NCBI GenBank assembly: GCA_043804695.1
Contig: JAZDIV010000121.1
Location: 1-21,599 of the forward strand
Reading direction: 5' to 3'
Source: PVC group bacterium
Lineage (GTDB): Bacteria; Auribacterota; Erginobacteria; Erginobacterales; Erginobacteraceae
Length of the DNA: 21,599 bases
The notes under the pieces are model-generated. The model had not been told where the DNA came from. It ran no database searches and worked only from the letters and a program-made list of their open reading frames with translations. The translations under genes and the position numbers were made by a program. How positions within the stretch are numbered: the stretch's first letter is position 1; each line of letters opens with the position of its first letter. This document shows positions 2,850 through 18,205 of this stretch, one piece after another.

Positions 2850-3400
2850 TTGAGTGCTTTCTTTCATAATAAATGGCTTGATAATATTCCCGAACAAGAT
2901 AGGGAAGTAATAAAAAAACTTATAGTACGATTATTCCCAAAATTAGAAGCGATATTTGGAACAAGTCATTATGGCTTTAGTTGGGAGTCGACCTGGAGAA
3001 AGCAATTGAGAATATGTAGTCCCGATATTTTTCCTATCTTTTTCCGTTTGGGAGTCCCAAGAGGACAAATATCAAATATAGAAATGCAATCGGTTTTATC
3101 TCTGTCTGAAGACAGCAATGCGTTTGGCGATAAGTTGCTGGAGCTATCCAAACAACATCGTCCTGATGGTTCAACTCGGGTAAGTACTACTCTCGAGCGG
3201 ATGGAAGATTACACAGAAAAGGAAATTTCCAAGGAACATATTCCTAACATCCTGCAAGCTCTATTTAATGTGGGGGATCGATTGATAGTCCCGGAAGATG
3301 AAGGAAGGGGTTTTTTCTCGTGGGGTAATGATATGCGCATGGGGAGGCTGACGTTCCGATTATTGAAACGTTATGAAACAAAAGAAGATAGATATATTAA
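2850..3400 (+). pseudogene. C-terminal fragment of a KAP-family P-loop NTPase-like protein
   Basis: AT-rich island with a TTG start and no RBS. 'FHNKWL...RLFPKL...WRKQLRICSPDIFPIFFRLGVPRGQISNIE' resembles the C-terminal region of KAP NTPases; no Walker motifs are present. The ORF tail (to 3587) simply reads through a palindromic repeat. Confidence 0.55.
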
Positions 3401-3434
3401 TCCGACCGTTGTAGGATTTACATCAAGGGTCGCG

Positions 3435-3560
3435 GTCATTGCGAGCGTTAGCCGAAGCCGCGAGCAAAGCGTGGCGGGAAGCAATCTCTTGCTGTGCATA
3501 GAGTTGAGATTGCGTAGCCTGTCCCGAGCGATAGCGAAGGATCTCGCTCCTCGCAATGAC
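3435..3560. repeat. Nested palindromic REP/MITE-like element (GTCATTGCGAG...CTCGCAATGAC)
   Basis: Perfect 11-bp terminal inverted repeats at 3435-3445 and 3550-3560. Inner inverted pair GCAATCTC (3481-3488) / GAGATTGC (3506-3513). Confidence 0.85.
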
Positions 3561-3589
3561 ATGTCTATACAATTATGGACTGACTAATA

Positions 3590-3643: not shown

Positions 3644-4840
3644 ATGACAACCAGCAGTTATAAAAGCCCTGATCGGCGCCATCGAATTATCCGGCAGACG
3701 CTTCCCCTGATAGTGGTTGCCGCTCTGGCATTGACGGCGGGCTGCTCCAAAAAGCAGCCGCAGCAGGAGATCCCCCCCCGGCCGGTGAAAATCGCCGCGG
3801 CGATTGAGCAGGACATCCCCCTTTACATTGAAAATTTCGGGAACCTGGTCTCTCCCGACGACGTGAATATCGTCTCCCAGGTTACGGGCAAGATCCTGTC
3901 CGTTCATTTTAGGGAAGGAGATGAGGTGAAGAAGGGTGACCCCCTCTTCACCATCGATCCCCGGGAGTATCAGGCCGATCTTGACAAGAGCAAGGCATCC
4001 CTGGAAGCTTCCCGGGTCGACCTGAAGTTAAAGAATGAGACCTTCGAGCGGAACAAGCAGCTGATCGGGAAGAAGCTCATCTCCCAGCAGGATTATGATA
4101 CCTACCAGACTGACGCCGAGGGCGCCCGGGCCCAGGTGGCGCTCGATCAGGCTGCCGTCGAGCTGGCGGAGATCAATCTCGGGTACTGCTCCATCACCTC
4201 CCCGATCAACGGGGCCACCGGGAAGCGGCTGGTCGACCCCGGTAACGTCGTCGCCGCCAACAGCGGCACCGCGCTTGTTAACATAAAGTCGGTCGACCCT
4301 CTCTATGTCGATTTCACCATCCCCGAGAGCCGGTTCTCCTGGGTAAAAGAGGAGATGGCGAAGTCAACCCTGCAGGTCCAGATCTCGCCGGAGGGCGATA
4401 CGGGAGGCCCCTGCGACGGGACGCTGCAGCTGATCGATAATACCGTCGACCCGATGACCGGAACGGTGTCTCTCCGGGCCTCCGTTCCCAACCCGGACCG
4501 GAAGCTCTGGCCGGGGCAGTATGTGACCGTCAGGCTCATCGTCGCCAGCGCCCCGAATGCGGTCCTGGTCCCCGGCGCGGCCGTCCAGCTCGGTCCGAAG
4601 GGGGCGTACCTCTTTGTGGTCAAGGACGATAACACGGCGGAACTGCGGGACGACATCACGGTCGGACTGGCCGAGGAGGACTATGTCCAGATCAAGAAGG
4701 GCGTCAAAGTCGGGGAGAAAGTGGTGACCTACGGTCAGCTGGGCCTCGCCCCCGGCTCCAAAGTGCAGATCGTCGCGGATGATAGCAAGAAAGGGGGTAA
4801 AGAACAAACAACGCCGACATCCAAAAAGGGCGAGGAATGA
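3644..4840 (+). CDS. RND efflux periplasmic adaptor (membrane fusion protein, MdtA/AcrA-like), lipoprotein
   Basis: RBS GAGGAGG/AAGGA and lipobox 'LTAGC'. Motifs 'VSQVTGKILSVHFREGDEVKKGDPLFTIDPR', 'ITSPING...VDPGNVV', 'IDNTVDPMTGT' and 'LWPGQYV'. Confidence 0.93.
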   Translation: MTTSSYKSPDRRHRIIRQTLPLIVVAALALTAGCSKKQPQQEIPPRPVKIAAAIEQDIPLYIENFGNLVSPDDVNIVSQVTGKILSVHFREGDEVKKGDPLFTIDPREYQADLDKSKASLEASRVDLKLKNETFERNKQLIGKKLISQQDYDTYQTDAEGARAQVALDQAAVELAEINLGYCSITSPINGATGKRLVDPGNVVAANSGTALVNIKSVDPLYVDFTIPESRFSWVKEEMAKSTLQVQISPEGDTGGPCDGTLQLIDNTVDPMTGTVSLRASVPNPDRKLWPGQYVTVRLIVASAPNAVLVPGAAVQLGPKGAYLFVVKDDNTAELRDDITVGLAEEDYVQIKKGVKVGEKVVTYGQLGLAPGSKVQIVADDSKKGGKEQTTPTSKKGEE

Positions 4841-4842
4841 TA

Positions 4843-5444
4843 TTAAAAGACCGGGAATGGGTAAGGGTTACGATGCCCGTTTCGGTTAAGGTAAGGGTAA
4901 CGTGCGTTGTCAAAACATGCGTTGGTGCTTGAGTCTAACGTCATGAACAACCTGAATTTAAGGTTGCTATGATAGGGGCGCGAAAGATAACGAGTTTTCG
5001 GGATCTGGAGGTTTATCGAAATACATATCAGGCTATGCTCCTCGTCATGCGGGAGATTGTCCCGAAGTTGCCGGAGAAGGAAAAATATGATTTAACTGAC
5101 CAATCCAGCCGGGCTTGCAAAGCTATACCGCGGTTAATTGCCGAGGGGTACGCCAAGCGACACCAACGAGCGGGTTTTAAGAAGTATATCGATGATGCCA
5201 TGGCTGAATGCAACGAGATGATAGTCAATTTGTGCCAATGCAGGGATTTGTATGGCAAGTACATAGATACCGATAAATGCGAAACTTTGATCGACACCTA
5301 CGACAAATCAGGCAGACAGCTCTATAAACTAGGCCTGGCCTGGTCAAATTTCAAAATGCAAGGCTAATCATAGAGGCGTGAATCCGTAACCGTAACCGTC
5401 CACCGAAACGGGCTTCGTTACCGTTGCCCTGACCGAATTTAAAA
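4843..5444 (+). mobile_element. Candidate insertion element: inverted-repeat-flanked four-helix-bundle cassette
   Basis: Left arm ~4854-4902 and right arm ~5385-5434 are inverted, with a perfect core GCCCGTTTCGGT (4875-4886) / ACCGAAACGGGC (5402-5413). TTAAAA occurs at 4843-4848 and 5439-5444. The cassette separates adaptor and permease genes that are normally adjacent. Mobility is inferred. Confidence 0.6.
4969..5367 (+). CDS. Four helix bundle protein (23S rRNA intervening-sequence protein / TIGR02436-like)
   Basis: 132 aa with the family pattern 'SFRDLEVY...LPEKEKYDLTDQ..RA..AIPRLIAEGY.KR....F..Y...A..E..E'. More AT-rich than the flanking genes. Confidence 0.9.
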   Translation: MIGARKITSFRDLEVYRNTYQAMLLVMREIVPKLPEKEKYDLTDQSSRACKAIPRLIAEGYAKRHQRAGFKKYIDDAMAECNEMIVNLCQCRDLYGKYIDTDKCETLIDTYDKSGRQLYKLGLAWSNFKMQG

Positions 5445-8400
5445 TGGCCTTCTCGGAAAAATTTATCCGTCGCCCGATCATGACTATCCTGATCGTGGTG
5501 ACGCTTCTGCTGGGCGGCCTGGTCGCCTATACCCAGCTCCCGGTCAGCGATCTTCCCTCGGTCGATTACCCGGTGATCACCATCACGGCCACCTACCCGG
5601 GTGCCAGCCCGGAACTGATGGCTTCGTCCGTTGCTTCCCCCCTGGAAGACGAGTGCATGCAGATCCCGGGACTCCAGACCATCATCTCGGACAATCAAGC
5701 CGGGATAACGACCATCACCCTCAGTTTTGAACTGGACAAGAACGTTGACCTGGCCGCGCCCGATGTCCAGGCGGCGATCACTCGCGCCCAGGCCAATCTC
5801 CCGACTCTTCCCCAGCCGCCGACCTACGACAAGAACAACCCCGCCGACCAGCCGATCATCTATATCATGGTCGACTCCGAGACCATGACCGGCGGCGACC
5901 TCTATGACTATGCCCACAAGTCGATCGGACAGCGGATCAACATGATCGAGGGGATCTCCAAGGTCGACATCTACGGGGCCAAGCGGGCGATCCGGGTCCT
6001 GATCGATCCCGAGAAGCTGGCTTCTCTCGACCTCGGCCTGGACGAGGTCTATCAGGCGCTGAACAAGGGGACGGTGACCACCCCCGGCGGTGACCTGAAC
6101 GGGAAATACCGCACCTTCTCGATCTATCCGGAGGGTCAGTTGACCGAGCCGGAGCAGTACAAGGAACTGATCATCGCCTACCGGAACAACGCGCCCATCC
6201 GGGTCGGGGATGTAGGCAACGTGGTCGACAGCCTGGAGAGCGACGTGATCAACGTCATGTACGGGAATAAGGAGACCGGGATGAAGGCGGGCGCTGTCTG
6301 TATCGCCGCCACCCGGGCTTCCGGGGCCAATACCGTCGCTCTCTCCCGGGAGGTTCGGTCCCTGCTGAAAGAGATCAGGCCGACTCTCCCCGGGTCTCTC
6401 AACGGGAGGATCTTCTATGACAAGGCGATCCAGATCAAGGAGTCGATCAACGACGTGGAGACCACCATTCTCATCGCCCTGGTTCTGGTGGTTCTGATCA
6501 TCTTCCTTTTTTTGGGCCGGGTCTCCGATACCATGGTCCCGGCCGCCGTCCTCCCGGTGACACTCTTCGGCACCTTCCTGGTCATGATGTTCGCCGGGTT
6601 CAGTCTCGATAACCTTTCCCTGATGAGCCTCACTCTTTCGATCGGCTTCCTGGTCGATGACGCGATCGTTGTCCTGGAGAATACCGTTCGCCATATCCAG
6701 GCCGGTGAGAAACCGCTCTCCGCGGCCATCAAGAGTATGGAGGAGATCACCGGGACGGTCATCTCGACCAGCATCGCCCTGGTCGTGGTCTTCATTCCCC
6801 TGGTCTTCATGGCCGGCGTGGTGGGGAGGAACTTCAAGGAATTCGCCCTGACCGTCATCTTCGCCATCTCCGTCTCCACCGTCATTGCCCTGACGCTCTC
6901 CCCGATGATGTGCGCCCGGGTGTTGAAAGCGGGGAAAGCGAACAAGACCCGGCTGGAAAGATTTTCCGACCGGTTTATCGGGGGCATTATCAAAAATTAC
7001 GGCGTGGCTCTCAAATGGGTGCTGCAGCGCAAATACCTGACCATTCTGGGGGGTCTGGGTTGCCTGGCCGGGATCGTGTATTTCTTCGTCGCCCTCCCCA
7101 AGACCTTCATGCCGACCGGCGACAGCGGCTGCTTTTACGGGCAGTTCCAGGCGCTTCAGGGGGCCTCGACGGGACAGATCCGCCATTTCCAGGACCGGGT
7201 CAACGAGATCATCACCGCCAATCCCGCGGTTGAAAACCTCCTCACGGTCACCGGGAAACAGACCGGCGCCGACCAGAGCACCGGCATCGTCGTCTCCACC
7301 CTCAAACCGACCGGCGAACGGGAACCGATCGAGCAGGTGGTCGAGGAACTTAACCGGGCCCTTTACTCGATTTCCGATCTGGGGATGGTTTTTCTGATGC
7401 CGCTCCCCTCGCTGATCCTGAGTACCGGGGCGGAGAGTACCGCCACGGGAAGCCAGTATTCTTATGTTCTCTCCGGCCAGGATATGGACCAGGTCTACCA
7501 GGCAGCAGCGGAGATGGAGCAGCGGATGCGACAGCTGCCGTATTTTTCCGGCATTCAGACCAGCGTCAAGGTGAACCTTCCCCAGTTGAATATCGACCTT
7601 AAACGCGATCGGGCCTCGGCCCTGGGCATCGCGGCGGCGGATATCGAGGATGCTCTCGCCCTGGCTTACGCCAAGGGGAAAACCGCCACCTATCTGACCG
7701 ATATCGATCAGTACTGGGTGATCATGGAGGCCGAGGATAAAGACCGGCAGATTCCCAGTGATCTCTCCAAGATCTATGTCCGCTCGCCACAGACCGGCAA
7801 GCTGGTACCTCTGAGTTCGGTCGCCGATTGGATTCCGACGGTTGCTCCCCAGAATGTCCCCCACCACAATCAGCTCAATGCCGCCACGCTCTCCTACAAC
7901 CTGGCCCCCGGCGTCCCTCTCGGCGACGCCACCAAGGCCCTCAATCAGCTGGCCCGGGAGATCCTTCCTCCCGCCGTCGGCGGCGTGATGCAGGGGCAGG
8001 CCCAGGAGTTCGAGGAGGCGATCCAGAGCCTGGTGGTGCTGATGATAGTGGCCGTCTTCATCATGTACGTCATCCTGGGGATCCTCTATGAGAGCTATAT
8101 TCATCCCTTTACGGTCTTGACCACTCTCCCCCCCGCCGCTTTCGGGGGACTCCTCACTCTCTATATCTTCGGCTCGGAACTCTCCCTGTATGCCTATATT
8201 GGGATGTTCATGCTGCTGGGAATTGTTTCCAAGAACGGGATCATGATGGTCGACTTCGCCAAGCAGTACATGGAGGAGGGGCAGAACGCCTTCGACGCCA
8301 TCTACAATTCCTGCATTGTCCGGTTCCGCCCGATCCTGATGACCGGTGCTTCGACCATCATGGGGACACTCCCGATCGCGATCGGCCTGGGTGCGGACGC

Positions 8401-8608
8401 CTCCGCCCGCCGTCCCCTGGGATTGCTGATCGTCGGCGGCCTGGCCTTCGCCCAGGTGATTACCCTCTTCATCACCCCGGGACTCTTCCTCTACATGCAG
8501 GCTTTCCAGGAGAAGGTCCTCGACCGCTTCGAGCTGACCCGCTCCGACGCCTGCCGCCTGAAGATGGCGGCCGCGGAGGCGGGTCCCGCTCCGGAACCAC
8601 CCAGGTAA
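5444..8608 (+). CDS. RND efflux permease (AcrB/MdtB/MdtC-like, HAE1 family)
   Basis: 1054 aa. 'FIRRPI', 'YPGASPE', proton-relay 'VDDAIVVLEN', 'KNGIMMVDFA' and 'RFRPILMT'. Confidence 0.96.
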   Translation: MAFSEKFIRRPIMTILIVVTLLLGGLVAYTQLPVSDLPSVDYPVITITATYPGASPELMASSVASPLEDECMQIPGLQTIISDNQAGITTITLSFELDKNVDLAAPDVQAAITRAQANLPTLPQPPTYDKNNPADQPIIYIMVDSETMTGGDLYDYAHKSIGQRINMIEGISKVDIYGAKRAIRVLIDPEKLASLDLGLDEVYQALNKGTVTTPGGDLNGKYRTFSIYPEGQLTEPEQYKELIIAYRNNAPIRVGDVGNVVDSLESDVINVMYGNKETGMKAGAVCIAATRASGANTVALSREVRSLLKEIRPTLPGSLNGRIFYDKAIQIKESINDVETTILIALVLVVLIIFLFLGRVSDTMVPAAVLPVTLFGTFLVMMFAGFSLDNLSLMSLTLSIGFLVDDAIVVLENTVRHIQAGEKPLSAAIKSMEEITGTVISTSIALVVVFIPLVFMAGVVGRNFKEFALTVIFAISVSTVIALTLSPMMCARVLKAGKANKTRLERFSDRFIGGIIKNYGVALKWVLQRKYLTILGGLGCLAGIVYFFVALPKTFMPTGDSGCFYGQFQALQGASTGQIRHFQDRVNEIITANPAVENLLTVTGKQTGADQSTGIVVSTLKPTGEREPIEQVVEELNRALYSISDLGMVFLMPLPSLILSTGAESTATGSQYSYVLSGQDMDQVYQAAAEMEQRMRQLPYFSGIQTSVKVNLPQLNIDLKRDRASALGIAAADIEDALALAYAKGKTATYLTDIDQYWVIMEAEDKDRQIPSDLSKIYVRSPQTGKLVPLSSVADWIPTVAPQNVPHHNQLNAATLSYNLAPGVPLGDATKALNQLAREILPPAVGGVMQGQAQEFEEAIQSLVVLMIVAVFIMYVILGILYESYIHPFTVLTTLPPAAFGGLLTLYIFGSELSLYAYIGMFMLLGIVSKNGIMMVDFAKQYMEEGQNAFDAIYNSCIVRFRPILMTGASTIMGTLPIAIGLGADASARRPLGLLIVGGLAFAQVITLFITPGLFLYMQAFQEKVLDRFELTRSDACRLKMAAAEAGPAPEPPR

Positions 8609-9004: not shown

Positions 9005-9517
9005 ATGAAGAAGATCGTCTTAACCGGGATTGCCGGGCTGATGCTCGTCGGCGGCTTTTCTTCGGCCGGTGATTTTAAACCCGGCTCCGAACCGGACGGC
9101 TTCCGGGGGATCTCCTGGGGGACGGAGATCGGCGAGTTGACCGGCCTGAACCTGCTCCGGCGGGAGCCCGATCATGGGGGGGTGGATGTGTATGCGCGGA
9201 CGGGAGAGACGATGGTGGTGGGGTCGGCGCCGGCGGCGGCCGTCGAGTATTTTTTCTGGCGCGGCCTCTTTTACCGGGGCGCTGTCTTAACGGCGGGCGC
9301 GGAAGATTACCAGCAGCTTCAGCAGGCCGTTTTCGCGGAATACGGGGTCGGGGAGATCGATCCCGCTCCGGTGCCCGGGGCGACCTCGTTTTCCTGGGAA
9401 GGAGACATCACTTCCATGAGGCTTCAGTATCAGGAAGCCTCCCGGAGCGGGTCTCTTGTCCTCGCCTCCCAGAAGATCTGGCTCCGGATGCAGCAGGATG
9501 GATCAGATACGCCCTGA
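9005..9517 (+). CDS. Exported hypothetical protein
   Basis: RBS AGGAGG and signal peptide MKKIVLTGIAGLMLVGGFSSA. Overlaps the start of the mlaE-like gene. Confidence 0.75.
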   Translation: MKKIVLTGIAGLMLVGGFSSAGDFKPGSEPDGFRGISWGTEIGELTGLNLLRREPDHGGVDVYARTGETMVVGSAPAAAVEYFFWRGLFYRGAVLTAGAEDYQQLQQAVFAEYGVGEIDPAPVPGATSFSWEGDITSMRLQYQEASRSGSLVLASQKIWLRMQQDGSDTP

Positions 9518-10610: not shown

Positions 10611-10620
10611 ATAAACGATC

Positions 10621-10648
10621 GCCACCAAGGCACCAAGACACGAAGAAA
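10621..10648 (+). repeat. Orphan left arm of the 8-bp-period CACCAAGR repeat
   Basis: GCCACCAAGGCACCAAGACACGAAGAAA, nearly identical to 11654-11681. Confidence 0.8.
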
Positions 10649-10718
10649 AGAAAGAATAAAAAGGTAATTGTTGGTTTAGATCAGAACTAAAGTGTTATTA
10701 GAGGGTGAGGGGAGGGCA

Positions 10719-11618: not shown

Positions 11619-11653
11619 GCTAACCTGCTGCTTCGGAATTTCAATAATTATTA

Positions 11654-11741
11654 GCCACCAAGACACCAAGGCACCAAGAAAGAGGGAAGGTAAAATATCC
11701 ACCTTATGTGGTTTTTCTTGGTGTCGTAGTGTCTTAGTGGC
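11654..11741. repeat. Gene-less inverted-repeat element with 8-bp-period arms
   Basis: Arms 11654-11681 and 11714-11741 match at 24/28 positions as reverse complements, around a 32-nt spacer. Confidence 0.85.
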
Positions 11742-11788
11742 AAAAGTTGCGAGCGCAGCGAGCTAATTTATATTAAGGGAGGAGAACA

Positions 11789-12532
11789 GTGTCAACCAAA
11801 TCCCAGAAAATAAAAGTGGGGATTTTTATGCTGGTCGGTGTGGCCCTGACCGTGGCGGTTTTTGTCGTCATCGCGCTCAAGGACCGGACACCGACCGATT
11901 CCTATTTCATCATTTTCCAGGAAAGCGTGAGCGGTTTGAAGAGTGATTCCCCCGTCCTCTATAAAGGCGTCCAGGTGGGCAAGGTTCAGGATATTCGCGT
12001 CAAGGATAACAACGAGATTGTTGTTCAGATCGGCATCGAGAGAGGCAAGGTAACATTGCGGGAAGGAACCGTGGCCAAACTTGACCTGGCCAACCTGATG
12101 GGGGGCATGGTGGTCGAGCTTTCCGGGGGAAATATCCATTCCCCCTGCCTGGTGCCGGGGGCGCATATCACGTCGCAGACCTCCGTGCTGGAAAACCTGG
12201 CCAAGGATCTCCCGCAGATTCTTGATGATATCAAGAAGATACTGGGCAATCTGAACCGGGCGCTGGGGGAGGGAAACGCGGACAGGATAGGCTCACTGCT
12301 GGTTAACGCCGACCGGACGTTCATCTCCCTCAGCGAGACCCTGGATGTTTTAACGAAACTGCTCCATACAACCAGGAGCGACCTCGCCGATAGCGGCTAC
12401 GAACTGCGGAAAACCATGCTCAGCTTCCAGAGAGCCATGATCGAAGCCGCCCAGACCATGCACTTTCTGAAGAACGACCCCTCGTCAGTTATGTGGGGAC
12501 GGTCCAAACCGGAGAATCCATATGTTAAATAG
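11789..12532 (+). CDS. mlaD: MlaD/MCE-family protein
   Basis: RBS GGAGG and GTG start. N-terminal TM, MCE motif 'FQESVSGLKSDSPVLYKGVQVGKV', helical C-terminus ending 'NDPSSVMWG'. Confidence 0.9.
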   Translation: MSTKSQKIKVGIFMLVGVALTVAVFVVIALKDRTPTDSYFIIFQESVSGLKSDSPVLYKGVQVGKVQDIRVKDNNEIVVQIGIERGKVTLREGTVAKLDLANLMGGMVVELSGGNIHSPCLVPGAHITSQTSVLENLAKDLPQILDDIKKILGNLNRALGEGNADRIGSLLVNADRTFISLSETLDVLTKLLHTTRSDLADSGYELRKTMLSFQRAMIEAAQTMHFLKNDPSSVMWGRSKPENPYVK

Positions 12533-12534
12533 GG

Positions 12535-12599
12535 ACTGGTTACTGATTACTGGTTACTGGTTACTGATTACCGATCACTGATTACCGATTACTGATTAC
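12535..12599 (+). repeat. Heptamer tandem repeat ACYGRTY x9
   Basis: ACTGGTT ACTGATT ACTGGTT ACTGGTT ACTGATT ACCGATC ACTGATT ACCGATT ACTGATT AC. Confidence 0.92.
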
Positions 12600-12625: not shown

Positions 12626-13267
12626 ATGAAACGAATCTATGTAGTTCTGCTGTCAGCAGTAGCACTGACCGGAGCAGTCTCCTGCGGTTCTCACCTGCCG
12701 ACCTATTATTATTTGATCGAAACCGGTCCGGAGGTGACGAAGGCGGAGGAAGTCATTTCGCTCAAGGTCGACGTTAATCCCGTCCGCGCGCCGGATCGAT
12801 ACCTGAATCGAATCGTCTTTCGCCGGGGACCGTTCGAGGTCGGTTTCTATGAGTACAGCCAGTGGGTGGAACTTCCCGCCGCCATGGTGCGAAGAGCCCT
12901 CATTAATGCCCTCAACGAATCGGAGCTTTTCGGCCAGGTCGATCTTATCGGCAGCGATCCGGCGGCCGATCTTGATCTGAACTCCGAGATCGAAAGCTTT
13001 GATCAGGTGATAGAGGAAGATGAATGGTACGCCGCCTTTGACCTGATCCTTGAATTCAACCGCCACGATACCGGAGCGCCGGTCTGGAGCTACCGTACCG
13101 GCGCCCGGGTGAAGCAGAAAGGGGAGGGAGAACTGGCGGCGGCAATGAGTGAAGCGGTGAGCCGGGCGCTCGTCCAGGCGGTATCGGAGATGGAGCAGTC
13201 GGAAGAACTGCGGAAACTGCCTGATACATTTGCCGAGGAAAAGATAAAATCAGAAACTCGTAATTAA
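12626..13267 (+). CDS. PqiC-like / ABC-type transport auxiliary lipoprotein
   Basis: Lipobox 'AVSC', 'TYYYL' and 'IVFR...FYEYSQWVELPA'. Follows the MCE gene, as is usual for this operon type. Confidence 0.82.
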   Translation: MKRIYVVLLSAVALTGAVSCGSHLPTYYYLIETGPEVTKAEEVISLKVDVNPVRAPDRYLNRIVFRRGPFEVGFYEYSQWVELPAAMVRRALINALNESELFGQVDLIGSDPAADLDLNSEIESFDQVIEEDEWYAAFDLILEFNRHDTGAPVWSYRTGARVKQKGEGELAAAMSEAVSRALVQAVSEMEQSEELRKLPDTFAEEKIKSETRN

Positions 13268-13288
13268 TTGCTTCGGAATTTCAAAAAC

Positions 13289-13405
13289 GGTAACGGCAAG
13301 GGTAACGAAGCCCGTATCGGTGAGGGGAACGGTAACGGCTGCCTCGCTGGGCGCACGTAACCGTAACCGGCAGACGAAACGGGCCTCGTTACCGTAGCCG
13401 TAACC
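13289..13405. mobile_element. Empty (gene-less) copy of the four-helix-bundle cassette arms, MITE-like
   Basis: By hand count, left arm 13289-13337 matches 4854-4902 at 38/49 ungapped and right arm 13356-13405 matches 5385-5434 at 42/50 ungapped. The spacer is only 18 nt. Confidence 0.75.
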
Positions 13406-13445
13406 AGTTGCGAACGAAGTGAGCTAACTAAAGGGAGTGCTTAAG

Positions 13446-14681
13446 ATGAGCGGGCTCAACCTTCTCAGCCTGGCCGGAATCGTGGTTCTTCTTCTGATCG
13501 CGTTCATCTTTTCCAACAATAAAAAGAAGATCCGCTGGAAGATCGTCCTGATCGCCCTGCTTTCGGAGTTTGTCTTCGCTTTTCTCATCCTCCACACGGG
13601 CCCGGGGATGGCGTTCTTTAATTTCATCAGCAACGCCATTGTCCGGGTGCTGAGCTTTGCCTATGACGGGATCGACTTTGTCTTCGGATGGCTTTACTCG
13701 GGGGATGGGATCAAGAACTTCCAGGTCCAGCACGCGTTCATCCTGGAGGCGCTGGTCCCGATCGTCTTTACCGGATCGATTATAGCCGTTCTTTACCATT
13801 ACAAGATCATGCAGGCGGTGGTGAGGTGGATATCCATCCTCTTCACCAAGGCGCTCGGCATCAGCAGCGCCGAGTCCCTGGCCACGGTCAGCAATGTTTT
13901 TTTGGGGCAGACCCAGGCTCCGCTCGTGATTGCCCCCTATGTACAGAAACTGACCGAGTCCGAGTTCTTCGTGCTCATGGTCAGCGGCATGGCCACGGTG
14001 GCCGGGAGCCTCTTTGTCGCCTACAACGCCATGGGGGCGCAGATGAGCTACGTGCTGGCCGCCAGCATCATGGCCGCCCCCGGTGCGATCATCATGGCCA
14101 AGATCATGATCCCGGAGATCGGGACACCGGAGACGGAGGGGGACAAGCCGGTCATCGAGGACGAGCCCAAGACCCTCAACTTCCTCGACGCCATCGCCCA
14201 GGGGGCGACCGACGGCTGGAAGGTGACGGTCGGGGTGGCCGTGATGCTGCTCTCGTTCGTCTCCGTCATCTACCTCCTTAATTACTGTGTTGGCCTGGTG
14301 CCCGGACTTCATCTTTCTCTCGACAGGATCCTGAGCTGGATCTTCACGCCGATCGCTTTTATTATCGGGGTTCCCGCGAAAGATATCCCCGCCGTGGCGA
14401 CCATGCTGGGGAAGAAGACGGTATTTAACGAGTTTATCGCCTACGCCGACCTGAAGGGATATGTGGCCGCCGGGCTCTCCCCGCGCGCCTACCTGATGAC
14501 CTGCTTCGCCCTGACCGGGTTTGCCAACTTCTCCTCGATCGCCATCCAGATCGGGGGGATCGGCGAGATCGCTCCCAGCCGCCGGAAGGACGTGGCCAAA
14601 CTGGGGTTCCGGGCGGTCCTGGCGGCGGTCCTGGCCAACCTGCTCAGCGCCGCCATTGCCGGCGTGATGTTCTTCAGCTAA
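13446..14681 (+). CDS. nupC: Concentrative nucleoside transporter (CNT, NupC-like)
   Basis: 'AESLATVSNVFLGQTQAPL', 'SGMATVAGS', 'KTVFNEFIAY', 'FALTGFANFSSIAIQIGG'. ATG 13446 lies 8 nt after GGGAG. Confidence 0.92.
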   Translation: MSGLNLLSLAGIVVLLLIAFIFSNNKKKIRWKIVLIALLSEFVFAFLILHTGPGMAFFNFISNAIVRVLSFAYDGIDFVFGWLYSGDGIKNFQVQHAFILEALVPIVFTGSIIAVLYHYKIMQAVVRWISILFTKALGISSAESLATVSNVFLGQTQAPLVIAPYVQKLTESEFFVLMVSGMATVAGSLFVAYNAMGAQMSYVLAASIMAAPGAIIMAKIMIPEIGTPETEGDKPVIEDEPKTLNFLDAIAQGATDGWKVTVGVAVMLLSFVSVIYLLNYCVGLVPGLHLSLDRILSWIFTPIAFIIGVPAKDIPAVATMLGKKTVFNEFIAYADLKGYVAAGLSPRAYLMTCFALTGFANFSSIAIQIGGIGEIAPSRRKDVAKLGFRAVLAAVLANLLSAAIAGVMFFS

Positions 14682-17579: not shown

Positions 17580-17689
17580 AGCATTTTTTTATTGCCAGAG
17601 CGGGGTTCGCCGTCGGATAATGAATGCCTGCCCGGATTCCACCCGCCGTGGGCTGGAAGGCATGTGATTTATTTTCAGGAGGAAGAAGG

Positions 17690-18205
17690 ATGAAAAAAAG
17701 AAGTGTATTTTCGGTCATCGCGATAGCGGCGGTCATGCTCGTTGTCGCTCTGTCGGCGTGGTCACAATCCGGCGCTCCGGAGGCCGCGGCCGCTCCGGCG
17801 GCCGACATGCCGGAAGGCGATATGCCCGTGCCCGTCGCCCCCGCGGCTGCCGTGCCTGCAGATGCCACCCCCGCGGCCGTGTATGATCTTTATATCGTGG
17901 CCATGAAGGCGGGCGATCTCGACGGCATGGCCGCCTTTGTGACTAAGGCCAAGGTGGATCAGCTCCTGGCGATGCCCGATGATCAGAAAACCCAGATCGC
18001 CGAGATGATGAAGATGATGGCCCCGTCCGAGTACGCCGTGGTTACGGAGGACATCCAGGGAGACATTGCGACCCTGACCCTCACGGGGAAGGCGACGGAC
18101 TTTGCCGGCGGTTTCAACGAGCAGGAAGGCACCGCTACTTTCGTGAAGGAAGACGGGGTCTGGAAGCTGGTCGAAGACAGCTGGCAGATGGTCGCGTCGG
18201 AATAA
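17690..18205 (+). CDS. Exported hypothetical protein (Ala/Pro linker plus small NTF2/DUF4878-like domain)
   Basis: RBS AGGAGG and signal peptide. C-terminal 'GDIATLTL...FVKEDGVWKL' pattern. Confidence 0.75.
   Translation: MKKRSVFSVIAIAAVMLVVALSAWSQSGAPEAAAAPAADMPEGDMPVPVAPAAAVPADATPAAVYDLYIVAMKAGDLDGMAAFVTKAKVDQLLAMPDDQKTQIAEMMKMMAPSEYAVVTEDIQGDIATLTLTGKATDFAGGFNEQEGTATFVKEDGVWKLVEDSWQMVASE

Follow-up and report, generated by a model that had tools for sequence, protein, structure and literature searches.

The source genome of the window (the whole stretch of 21,599 nucleotides analysed here) carries a dispersed, fast-moving family of intergenic hairpins that is tied by sequence to a single conserved clade of four-helix-bundle proteins. 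In the genomes tested, the gene-less (empty) copies match the arms of the gene resident in the same genome, and each gene lineage has its own arm variant. With a probability of roughly one half, we read gene and hairpin as a cognate pair, in which the protein would be the specificity factor for copying its own stem in trans and an outside enzyme would cut and join. That the protein mobilises the empty copies is something we only infer. The present analysis contributes the specificity in both directions between gene and hairpin, the swarms that match arm variants, the geometry at the stop codon, the inverted interiors and the cases that speak against the pairing.

Architecture of the full and the empty copy

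The arms, outer modules and four-helix gene of the two copies and their four host genes lie on the forward strand. The full cassette (4854-5434) is located between the genes of an RND membrane-fusion protein (3644-4840) and an AcrB-family permease (5444-8608). It comprises a left arm (4854-4902, with the similarity strongest from 4860), a gene for a four-helix-bundle protein of 132 amino acids (4969-5367; PF05635/TIGR02436, Xcc0516/Avd fold) and a right arm (5385-5434) that ends 9 nt ahead of the acrB-like start codon. Minimum-energy and centroid folds both show the two arms paired across the gene. The gene is the sole member of its own clade found in the genome.

The empty copy (13289-13405) measures 117 bases and is intergenic between a PqiC-like lipoprotein gene (12626-13267; PF03886) and a nupC-type nucleoside transporter gene (13437-14681, with the ATG at 13446 as the likelier start). 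Its left arm (13289-13337) is a hexamer lattice with a conserved 19-nt core at 13301-13319, and its right arm (13356-13405) has the core at 13375-13393. The 18-nt spacer between them (13338-13355) forms the hairpin tip that replaces the gene and is the most variable part of the family. Two outer modules frame this copy and are lacking from the full copy, namely module A (13269-13288), which is AT-rich, polar and has 166 genome matches, and module B (13406-13427), a short hairpin of repeat family D13 adjoining the nupC start region. Both are common to other hairpin families, and a module A-type sequence also occurs in the window at 11629-11647.

The earlier note had counted by hand 38 of 49 identities between the left arms and 42 of 50 between the right arms, and an exact ungapped recount (13289-13337 vs. 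4854-4902; 13356-13405 vs. 5385-5434) returned the same figures, while the next unrelated matches within the window reach 25-27 identities at best. Its statement that a short spacer replaces the gene-containing interior holds as well (18 nt vs. 482 nt). In 10,000 shuffles that kept 6-nt blocks, the identity of the left arm was reached in 11 and that of the right arm in none. Positions 13270-13435 fold into a single long hairpin (z = -6.7) and none of 200 shuffles was as stable. No terminator or promoter-like site was found inside the empty element, and an Rfam scan of the window yielded four weak matches, all under gathering scores and none on the element.

The full copy of the window is rather drifted, with a long branch in the protein tree, a stop codon 17 nt before the arm and extra sequence ahead of the start. 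Its right arm occupies the place of the A-rich initiation region that relatives share before acrB (5435-5446). No Shine-Dalgarno motif is visible there before the acrB-like start; among the homologue loci, 14 of 45 downstream genes have one, a raw count taken without a baseline. Ahead of the four-helix gene, a reading frame of nine codons (4943-4972) has a stop that overlaps the start of the gene and a beginning that resembles the N-terminus of one homologue (L064); judged from the sequence, it may be either a coupling device or an old frameshift. Three open reading frames of the window have no Pfam match (2850-3587, 9005-9517 and 17624-18205).

The empty copies in the source genome

An ungapped scan of the genome with at least 33 matches per arm gave 38 left-arm and 40 right-arm hits. 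These include 35 empty pairs, with spacers of 15-18 nt, and one full pair, which is that of the window; a genome-wide count of full versus empty copies had been proposed in the earlier note, and it thus stands at 1 to 35. The same note had presented the empty copy of the window as the particular twin of the full copy. The arms are indeed shared, but the special relation is not: because 35 empties exist and others match the full copy at up to 79 of 93 positions against its 77 of 93, it is an ordinary member of the swarm. The empties of the genome resemble one another more than they resemble the full copy.

No two of the 26 forward-type empties that have an 18-nt spacer are identical, and their median identity is 87%. 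Mean non-consensus in the empties is 0.04-0.05 in the cores, 0.07-0.08 in the flanks and 0.19 in the spacer, and in the 26 copies variation is 0.03 at paired arm positions compared to 0.12 at unpaired ones. The compensatory stem substitutions for which the earlier note proposed to look are few (7 cells in 26 copies), and arm-to-arm covariation within the genome is no higher than in shuffles. Three columns of the arm-to-arm stem are usually unpaired, most often with A opposite A. Stems show no bias for G-U over A-C (35 vs. 28; in empties 3 vs. 20), so the pairing neither tells RNA from DNA nor marks the sense RNA as the folded strand. Core variability in this genome does not correlate significantly with that in other phyla (rho 0.40, p 0.09).

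Between co-oriented genes (n = 29), 24 empties lie in one orientation and five in the opposite one, a count that rests on home-made gene calls by which the four-helix gene itself was missed. The cores are situated at a median of 22 nt past the upstream stop and 33 nt ahead of the downstream start.

In the homologue loci (n = 79), the distance from the stop codon to the start of the right core is 8 nt in 18 and 14 nt in 11, and the core contains the stop in six. While 29 of the 79 loci thus stop at one of these two offsets, a TAA at each of them is retained by 31 of the 35 empties, including that of the window, whose right arm has TAA triplets 14 and 8 nt ahead of the core. By this geometry, the empties resemble cassettes that have lost their reading frame as far as the stop region.

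One or both outer modules are present on 34 of the 35 empties. Because the full copy lacks them, the outer frame could be what is mobilised in this genome, where it also encloses unrelated hairpins. Inside the frame, the interior is inverted in five copies (on contigs C10, C48:44773, C77:2426, C88:22405 and C149, with C48:41247 listed alongside), and the switch point falls within the outermost hexamers. As the five have a common spacer type, a single inversion followed by spread is likely. The inverted interiors show recombination between the arms, and they show that an interior can spread along with its frame.

At C48:41247 and C106:56529, the conserved core is interrupted by a palindromic insert of about 21 nt, and the same holds for loci L240-L242, L244 and L245. 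The genome holds 27 similar palindromes, and the insert may be a third, smaller element. One copy (L255) in a genome of another family (G055, contig C145) has the complete outer frame of the source genome, which may reflect either transfer or a mis-binned contig.

Association of gene and arms across genomes

A search of species genomes returned 132 relatives of the four-helix protein, and the best 80 of these 132 gave 79 loci with 60-77% identity. A matrix (threshold 10) that draws on nothing but the empties of the source genome detects both arms, correctly oriented and no more than 150 nt from the gene, in 53 of the 79 loci; two sets of distant control windows (75 and 71) gave none. With a broader matrix, 46 of 79 loci show the plain left arm-gene-right arm layout, most others are stacks with adjacent empties and three have no arm. 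Protein distance and arm distance are correlated (Mantel r 0.39, p 0.0005). None of the seven further PF05635 matches in the source genome has these arms, and five of the seven have other inverted simple repeats. Motif-free duplex folding of the homologue flanks was uninformative, with 68 of 79 controls under the same energy cut.

The neighbouring genes are diverse, with 50 clusters among 68 upstream genes and 47 clusters among 59 downstream genes, and co-oriented genes flank the cassette on both sides in 55 of the 79 loci. The junctions that were hit include hisH|hisF, ruvA|ruvB, gltB|gltD-type, trkH|trkA and deaminase|nrdR (50 neighbours scanned, named from Pfam domains). The clade is spread over about 19 labelled phyla. 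The protein tree, which is weakly supported (8 of 77 branches starred by a quick method), needs 33 phylum changes against a minimum of 18, and this scatter suggests horizontal transfer.

The association also appears when the search starts from the DNA. A core-pattern search of metagenomes gave at least 125 loci. Among those listed, 91 are empty pairs, three pairs enclose a gene of this clade, three more have the gene beside an arm but cut off, and two longer pairs (124-126 nt) lack a match to the four-helix protein; in 45 of those listed, the flank is only 300 nt. Among 16 unpaired metagenome arms inspected, two fall within protein-coding regions, and a Y1 transposase fragment adjoins another. 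Viral contigs gave no exact match to the core pattern. One locus (L178, 665-940) is a chimera of two cassette types: behind its left arm come a Y1 transposase fragment of 67 aa and a hairpin of another kind.

Pairing within genomes was assessed in 44 carriers, chosen from the 79 loci for canonical arms; they are not independent of each other, and because of kinship a Fisher test overstates the contrast that follows. At least four cores occur in 34 of the 44, compared to one of 75 genomes of the source genome's own phylum without a hit to the gene, while 10 of the 44 have two cores or fewer. The swarm also follows the arm variant of the gene. The source genome (G000) has 71 canonical cores and variant cores at background level, whereas the genome G011, with a variant-armed gene, has 78 matches to its own variant and no canonical core. 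G123 likewise has 25 variant cores and one canonical core and G124 has 47 and none; G125 and G126 have merely four and five variant cores. Counter-cases exist. G013 (92% complete) has 61 variant-repeat matches and G001 (89% complete) has 10 cores, and in neither was the cognate gene found; G055 has 11 canonical cores, but the arms of its gene are of another type. Such cases could reflect recent gene loss, incomplete assembly or gene-independent spread.

Site turnover among relatives

The pqiC-nupC junction is preserved in only two of eight relatives. A comparison of presence and absence at this junction, as the earlier note had suggested, finds the empty element in neither: in G001 an A-like module is followed by a hairpin of another kind, and in G004 the spacer measures 10 nt. 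The junction of the membrane-fusion and acrB genes is kept in all eight relatives, and none has the four-helix gene there. Of 14 loci examined in G001 and G006, both flanks allowed seven to be mapped; these represent six distinct junctions, and the source genome has the element at none of them. No target-site duplication was seen, with no close empty allele available for comparison, as orthologous junctions are too diverged or hold other inserts. The proposal that the arms define a propagating unit rather than a local promoter or terminator is borne out by the 35 empties, the turnover of sites and the lack of terminator or promoter-like sites inside the element.

The four-helix-bundle protein

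The predicted structure of the 4969-5367 product is all-helical with four helices (pLDDT 92.6). By fold, it comes nearest to Xcc0516 (Z 17.5; rmsd 1.7 over 113), BT_0352 (14.8) and Avd (14.6 and 13.5), none of which is called an enzyme in the entry titles; unrelated helical bundles score 12.6 or below. Profile matches are limited to the PF05635/TIGR02436 type, and the Avd family profile scores 13.8 bits against a cut-off of 80. The earlier note likened the gene to an autonomous partner, and in this respect it does not hold up: Pfam and TIGR profiles and fold matches recognise no transposase in the product. The protein evolves under purifying selection (median dN/dS 0.09, from 45 unsaturated pairs of 2926), and an internal stop occurs in 3 of 79 homologues.

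The family motif GxxRxxxSxxxNxxE (PMC3936711) is altered in this clade, where S and N are replaced. The residues K51, R55, K63, H65 and Q66 are invariant within the clade, as are Tyr, His, Asp and Glu residues. Judged from the alignment, K51 and R55 are candidates for specificity. PF05635 four-helix-bundle proteins are described in PMC4990558 as having solved structures and no known function. Their likeness to Avd is already in the literature (PMC10053308), as are four-helix genes inside cas loci (PMC3936711), which are listed in gene tables too. Avd is an RNA-binding pentamer that binds an RNA stem-loop through flipped-out bases (10.1101/2023.10.23.563531). In the literature on four-helix, PF05635, intervening-sequence and GxxExxY proteins, as covered by main texts and mostly outside subscription journals, there is no account of gene-less cognate copies.

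Candidate partner enzymes

RNase III has no match in any of the nine genomes of the host family (G000-G008; 75-97% complete, four at least 94%) and is present in 32 of the 44 other carriers, so that neither dependence nor avoidance gives a pattern. A reverse transcriptase was rejected as a consistent partner, being present in 8 of 22 high-copy carriers. The 21,599-nt window contains none, and the genome has a single match on another contig, which we take from its flanks to be a truncated group II intron. Y1 transposases occur in 21 of the 22 high-copy carriers, and also in 6 of 14 control genomes. The source genome has six Y1 matches, none with these arms in the flanks examined. For an integron-like reading, the genome offers three tyrosine recombinase matches, none of them on this contig. 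One RAYT-like Y1 gene (G000:C62:5765-6076) is flanked by stacks of its own palindromic repeats, which are unrelated to these arms.

Candidate mechanism and alternative explanations

The cognate-pair reading can be worded as a series of steps. The full unit would be an intervening-sequence-type cassette, in which the layout of a four-helix gene between two inverted arms at co-transcribed gene junctions is directly visible. The empties would be deletion derivatives that lost the reading frame from behind the left arm up to the stop region within the right arm, as their geometry suggests, and that spread to dozens of junctions with the quick turnover seen among relatives. An Avd-like oligomer would bind the folded stem of the two arms, in which unpaired bases recur at regular intervals, as RNA or single-stranded DNA, and the stem-bound protein would act as the specificity factor for copying in trans. 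Cutting and joining would fall to a separate host or mobile-element protein. Since the stem would loop the insert out and bring the upstream stop near the downstream start, the cost to the operon would probably be low.

The most serious alternative makes the gene a passenger: a Y1/HUH transposase, host recombination or template switching spreads any such hairpin, and the empties match the gene because they were deleted from it. Indeed, should the empties descend from the full copy of their own genome, linkage would by itself account for the match of the arms. This explanation accommodates the empties without a cognate gene in G001, G013 and G055, the near-universal Y1 transposases of high-copy carriers (with six matches in the source genome), the unrelated hairpins in the same outer frame and the five inverted interiors as a sign of arm recombination. 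It also fits the recurrence of the gene-between-repeats layout with unrelated cargo (a GxxExxY nuclease and the RAYT-like gene). However, it leaves unexplained why one 19-nt core is tied to one clade over about 19 labelled phyla, why the five other four-helix genes of the source genome each have different arms and why dN/dS is low. Moreover, the six Y1 genes lack these arms in the flanks examined, and Y1 genes are common in controls anyway. We regard the passenger explanation as possible, though doubtful.

A bolder version of the cognate-pair reading sees here a new class of bacterial mobile element. A small Avd-like protein that binds nucleic acid and lacks a known catalytic fold would act in trans to copy its own hairpin family to gene junctions, with each clade reading its own arm code and 23S rRNA intervening sequences as rare landings in rRNA. 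We put this forward tentatively, as a proposal that is less likely than not.

Alternatively, the protein could bind the hairpins in operon mRNA and lessen their cost, by translation coupling, stem shielding or processing, with no role in copying. Such an antidote or regulator would suit the skewed orientation of the empties (24 vs. 5) relative to co-oriented neighbours, the position of the cores shortly after a stop and before a start, the purifying selection and the RNA-binding pentamer of Avd. A regulon would, however, be expected to keep its sites, and these are not conserved in relatives (0 of 6). Many empties reside in genomes without the gene, and nothing indicates selection on the sense-strand RNA fold in particular, which makes this explanation unlikely.

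The earlier note had compared the two copies to an autonomous element and its MITE, or to a RAYT and its REPIN. The full/empty relation is real and specific across phyla, but the partner is no known transposase and the arms are individually not conserved palindromes. Taken literally, the comparison would make the four-helix protein itself a transposase or recombinase of an undescribed catalytic type. One gene with many empties per genome, cognate specificity, invariant Tyr, His, Asp and Glu residues and inverted interiors are compatible with a catalyst. Yet a product of 132 aa that is all-helical, matches PF05635/TIGR02436-type profiles only and has fold relatives not described as enzymes is hard to reconcile with it, and no target-site duplication was seen, though again with no close empty allele for comparison. 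We consider this highly improbable. Finally, hexamer repeats might be alike by chance, as the partly low-complexity arms and the few block shuffles reaching the left-arm identity bring to mind, or a segment might have been duplicated locally. This explanation is refuted by 35 differently flanked copies, a conserved non-repeat core and the cross-phylum association.

Relation to known systems

In structure, the element is like an ORF-bearing rRNA intervening sequence, and in its behaviour within the genome it is like a RAYT-REPIN pair, but it fails defining tests of both. As in 23S rRNA intervening sequences with an ORF, a PF05635 ORF lies in the loop of a terminal-inverted-repeat stem and the distribution is patchy (PMC4990558). 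Unlike in those, the cassette lies between protein-coding genes, here and in the homologue loci examined, and the window has no rRNA match; gene-less copies number in the dozens per genome; purifying selection acts on the ORF, while PMC4990558 reports reductive evolution for its example; and RNase III was not found in the nine host-family genomes.

With RAYT-REPIN systems, the element shares one gene with many extragenic inverted doublets that fold to hairpins, a gene-specific repeat type and fast turnover (PMC3337134; 10.1101/2022.05.22.493013). It differs in that the gene is no Y1/HUH transposase and sits inside the doublet, in that the clade is scattered over many phyla, and in its single arms, where the within-arm pairs occur in 49, 55, 78 and 34 of 87 distinct cores, without complementary covariation.

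MITEs keep the terminal inverted repeats of autonomous insertion sequences, have lost the interior and reach a high copy number. The empties likewise are many internal-deletion derivatives with both terminal inverted repeats, but there is no recognised transposase and the copies are confined to gene junctions. To Avd of diversity-generating retroelements (4DWL, 8UB7) the likeness is one of fold (Z 14.6 and 13.5); Avd binds a structured RNA that belongs to its element (10.1101/2023.10.23.563531). In contrast to such retroelements, the protein stays under the Avd cut-off and the window has no reverse transcriptase.

One PF05635 clade hereby gains a defined candidate ligand: an imperfect stem with a 19-nt core, of which natural variants exist that go along with changes in the protein. 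Binding and mobilisation thereby become directly testable. The pairing also offers a possible origin for the class of intergenic hairpin repeats that have no RAYT partner.

Other full and empty hairpin systems in the genome

The same outer frame holds a CACCAAG hairpin (11650-11745 and 10620-10650 in the window), which recurs in the genome as about 45 short pairs. At G000:C127:42541-42888, CACCAAG arms enclose a gene for a GxxExxY (PF13366) nuclease, and longer CACCAAG pairs are located on contigs C1, C70 and C114. Five other four-helix genes (on C27, C101, C143, C83 and C120, the last with an internal stop) each have their own inverted heptamer arms, and each is accompanied by 1 to 12 gene-less short pairs. 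This count is a rough one, as 12 and 21 arrays were returned for two of eight random control units; it also overlooked the CACCAAG family, for which the figure above comes from a recount. An array in the window (12521-12599) has the heptamer unit of the C27 four-helix gene.
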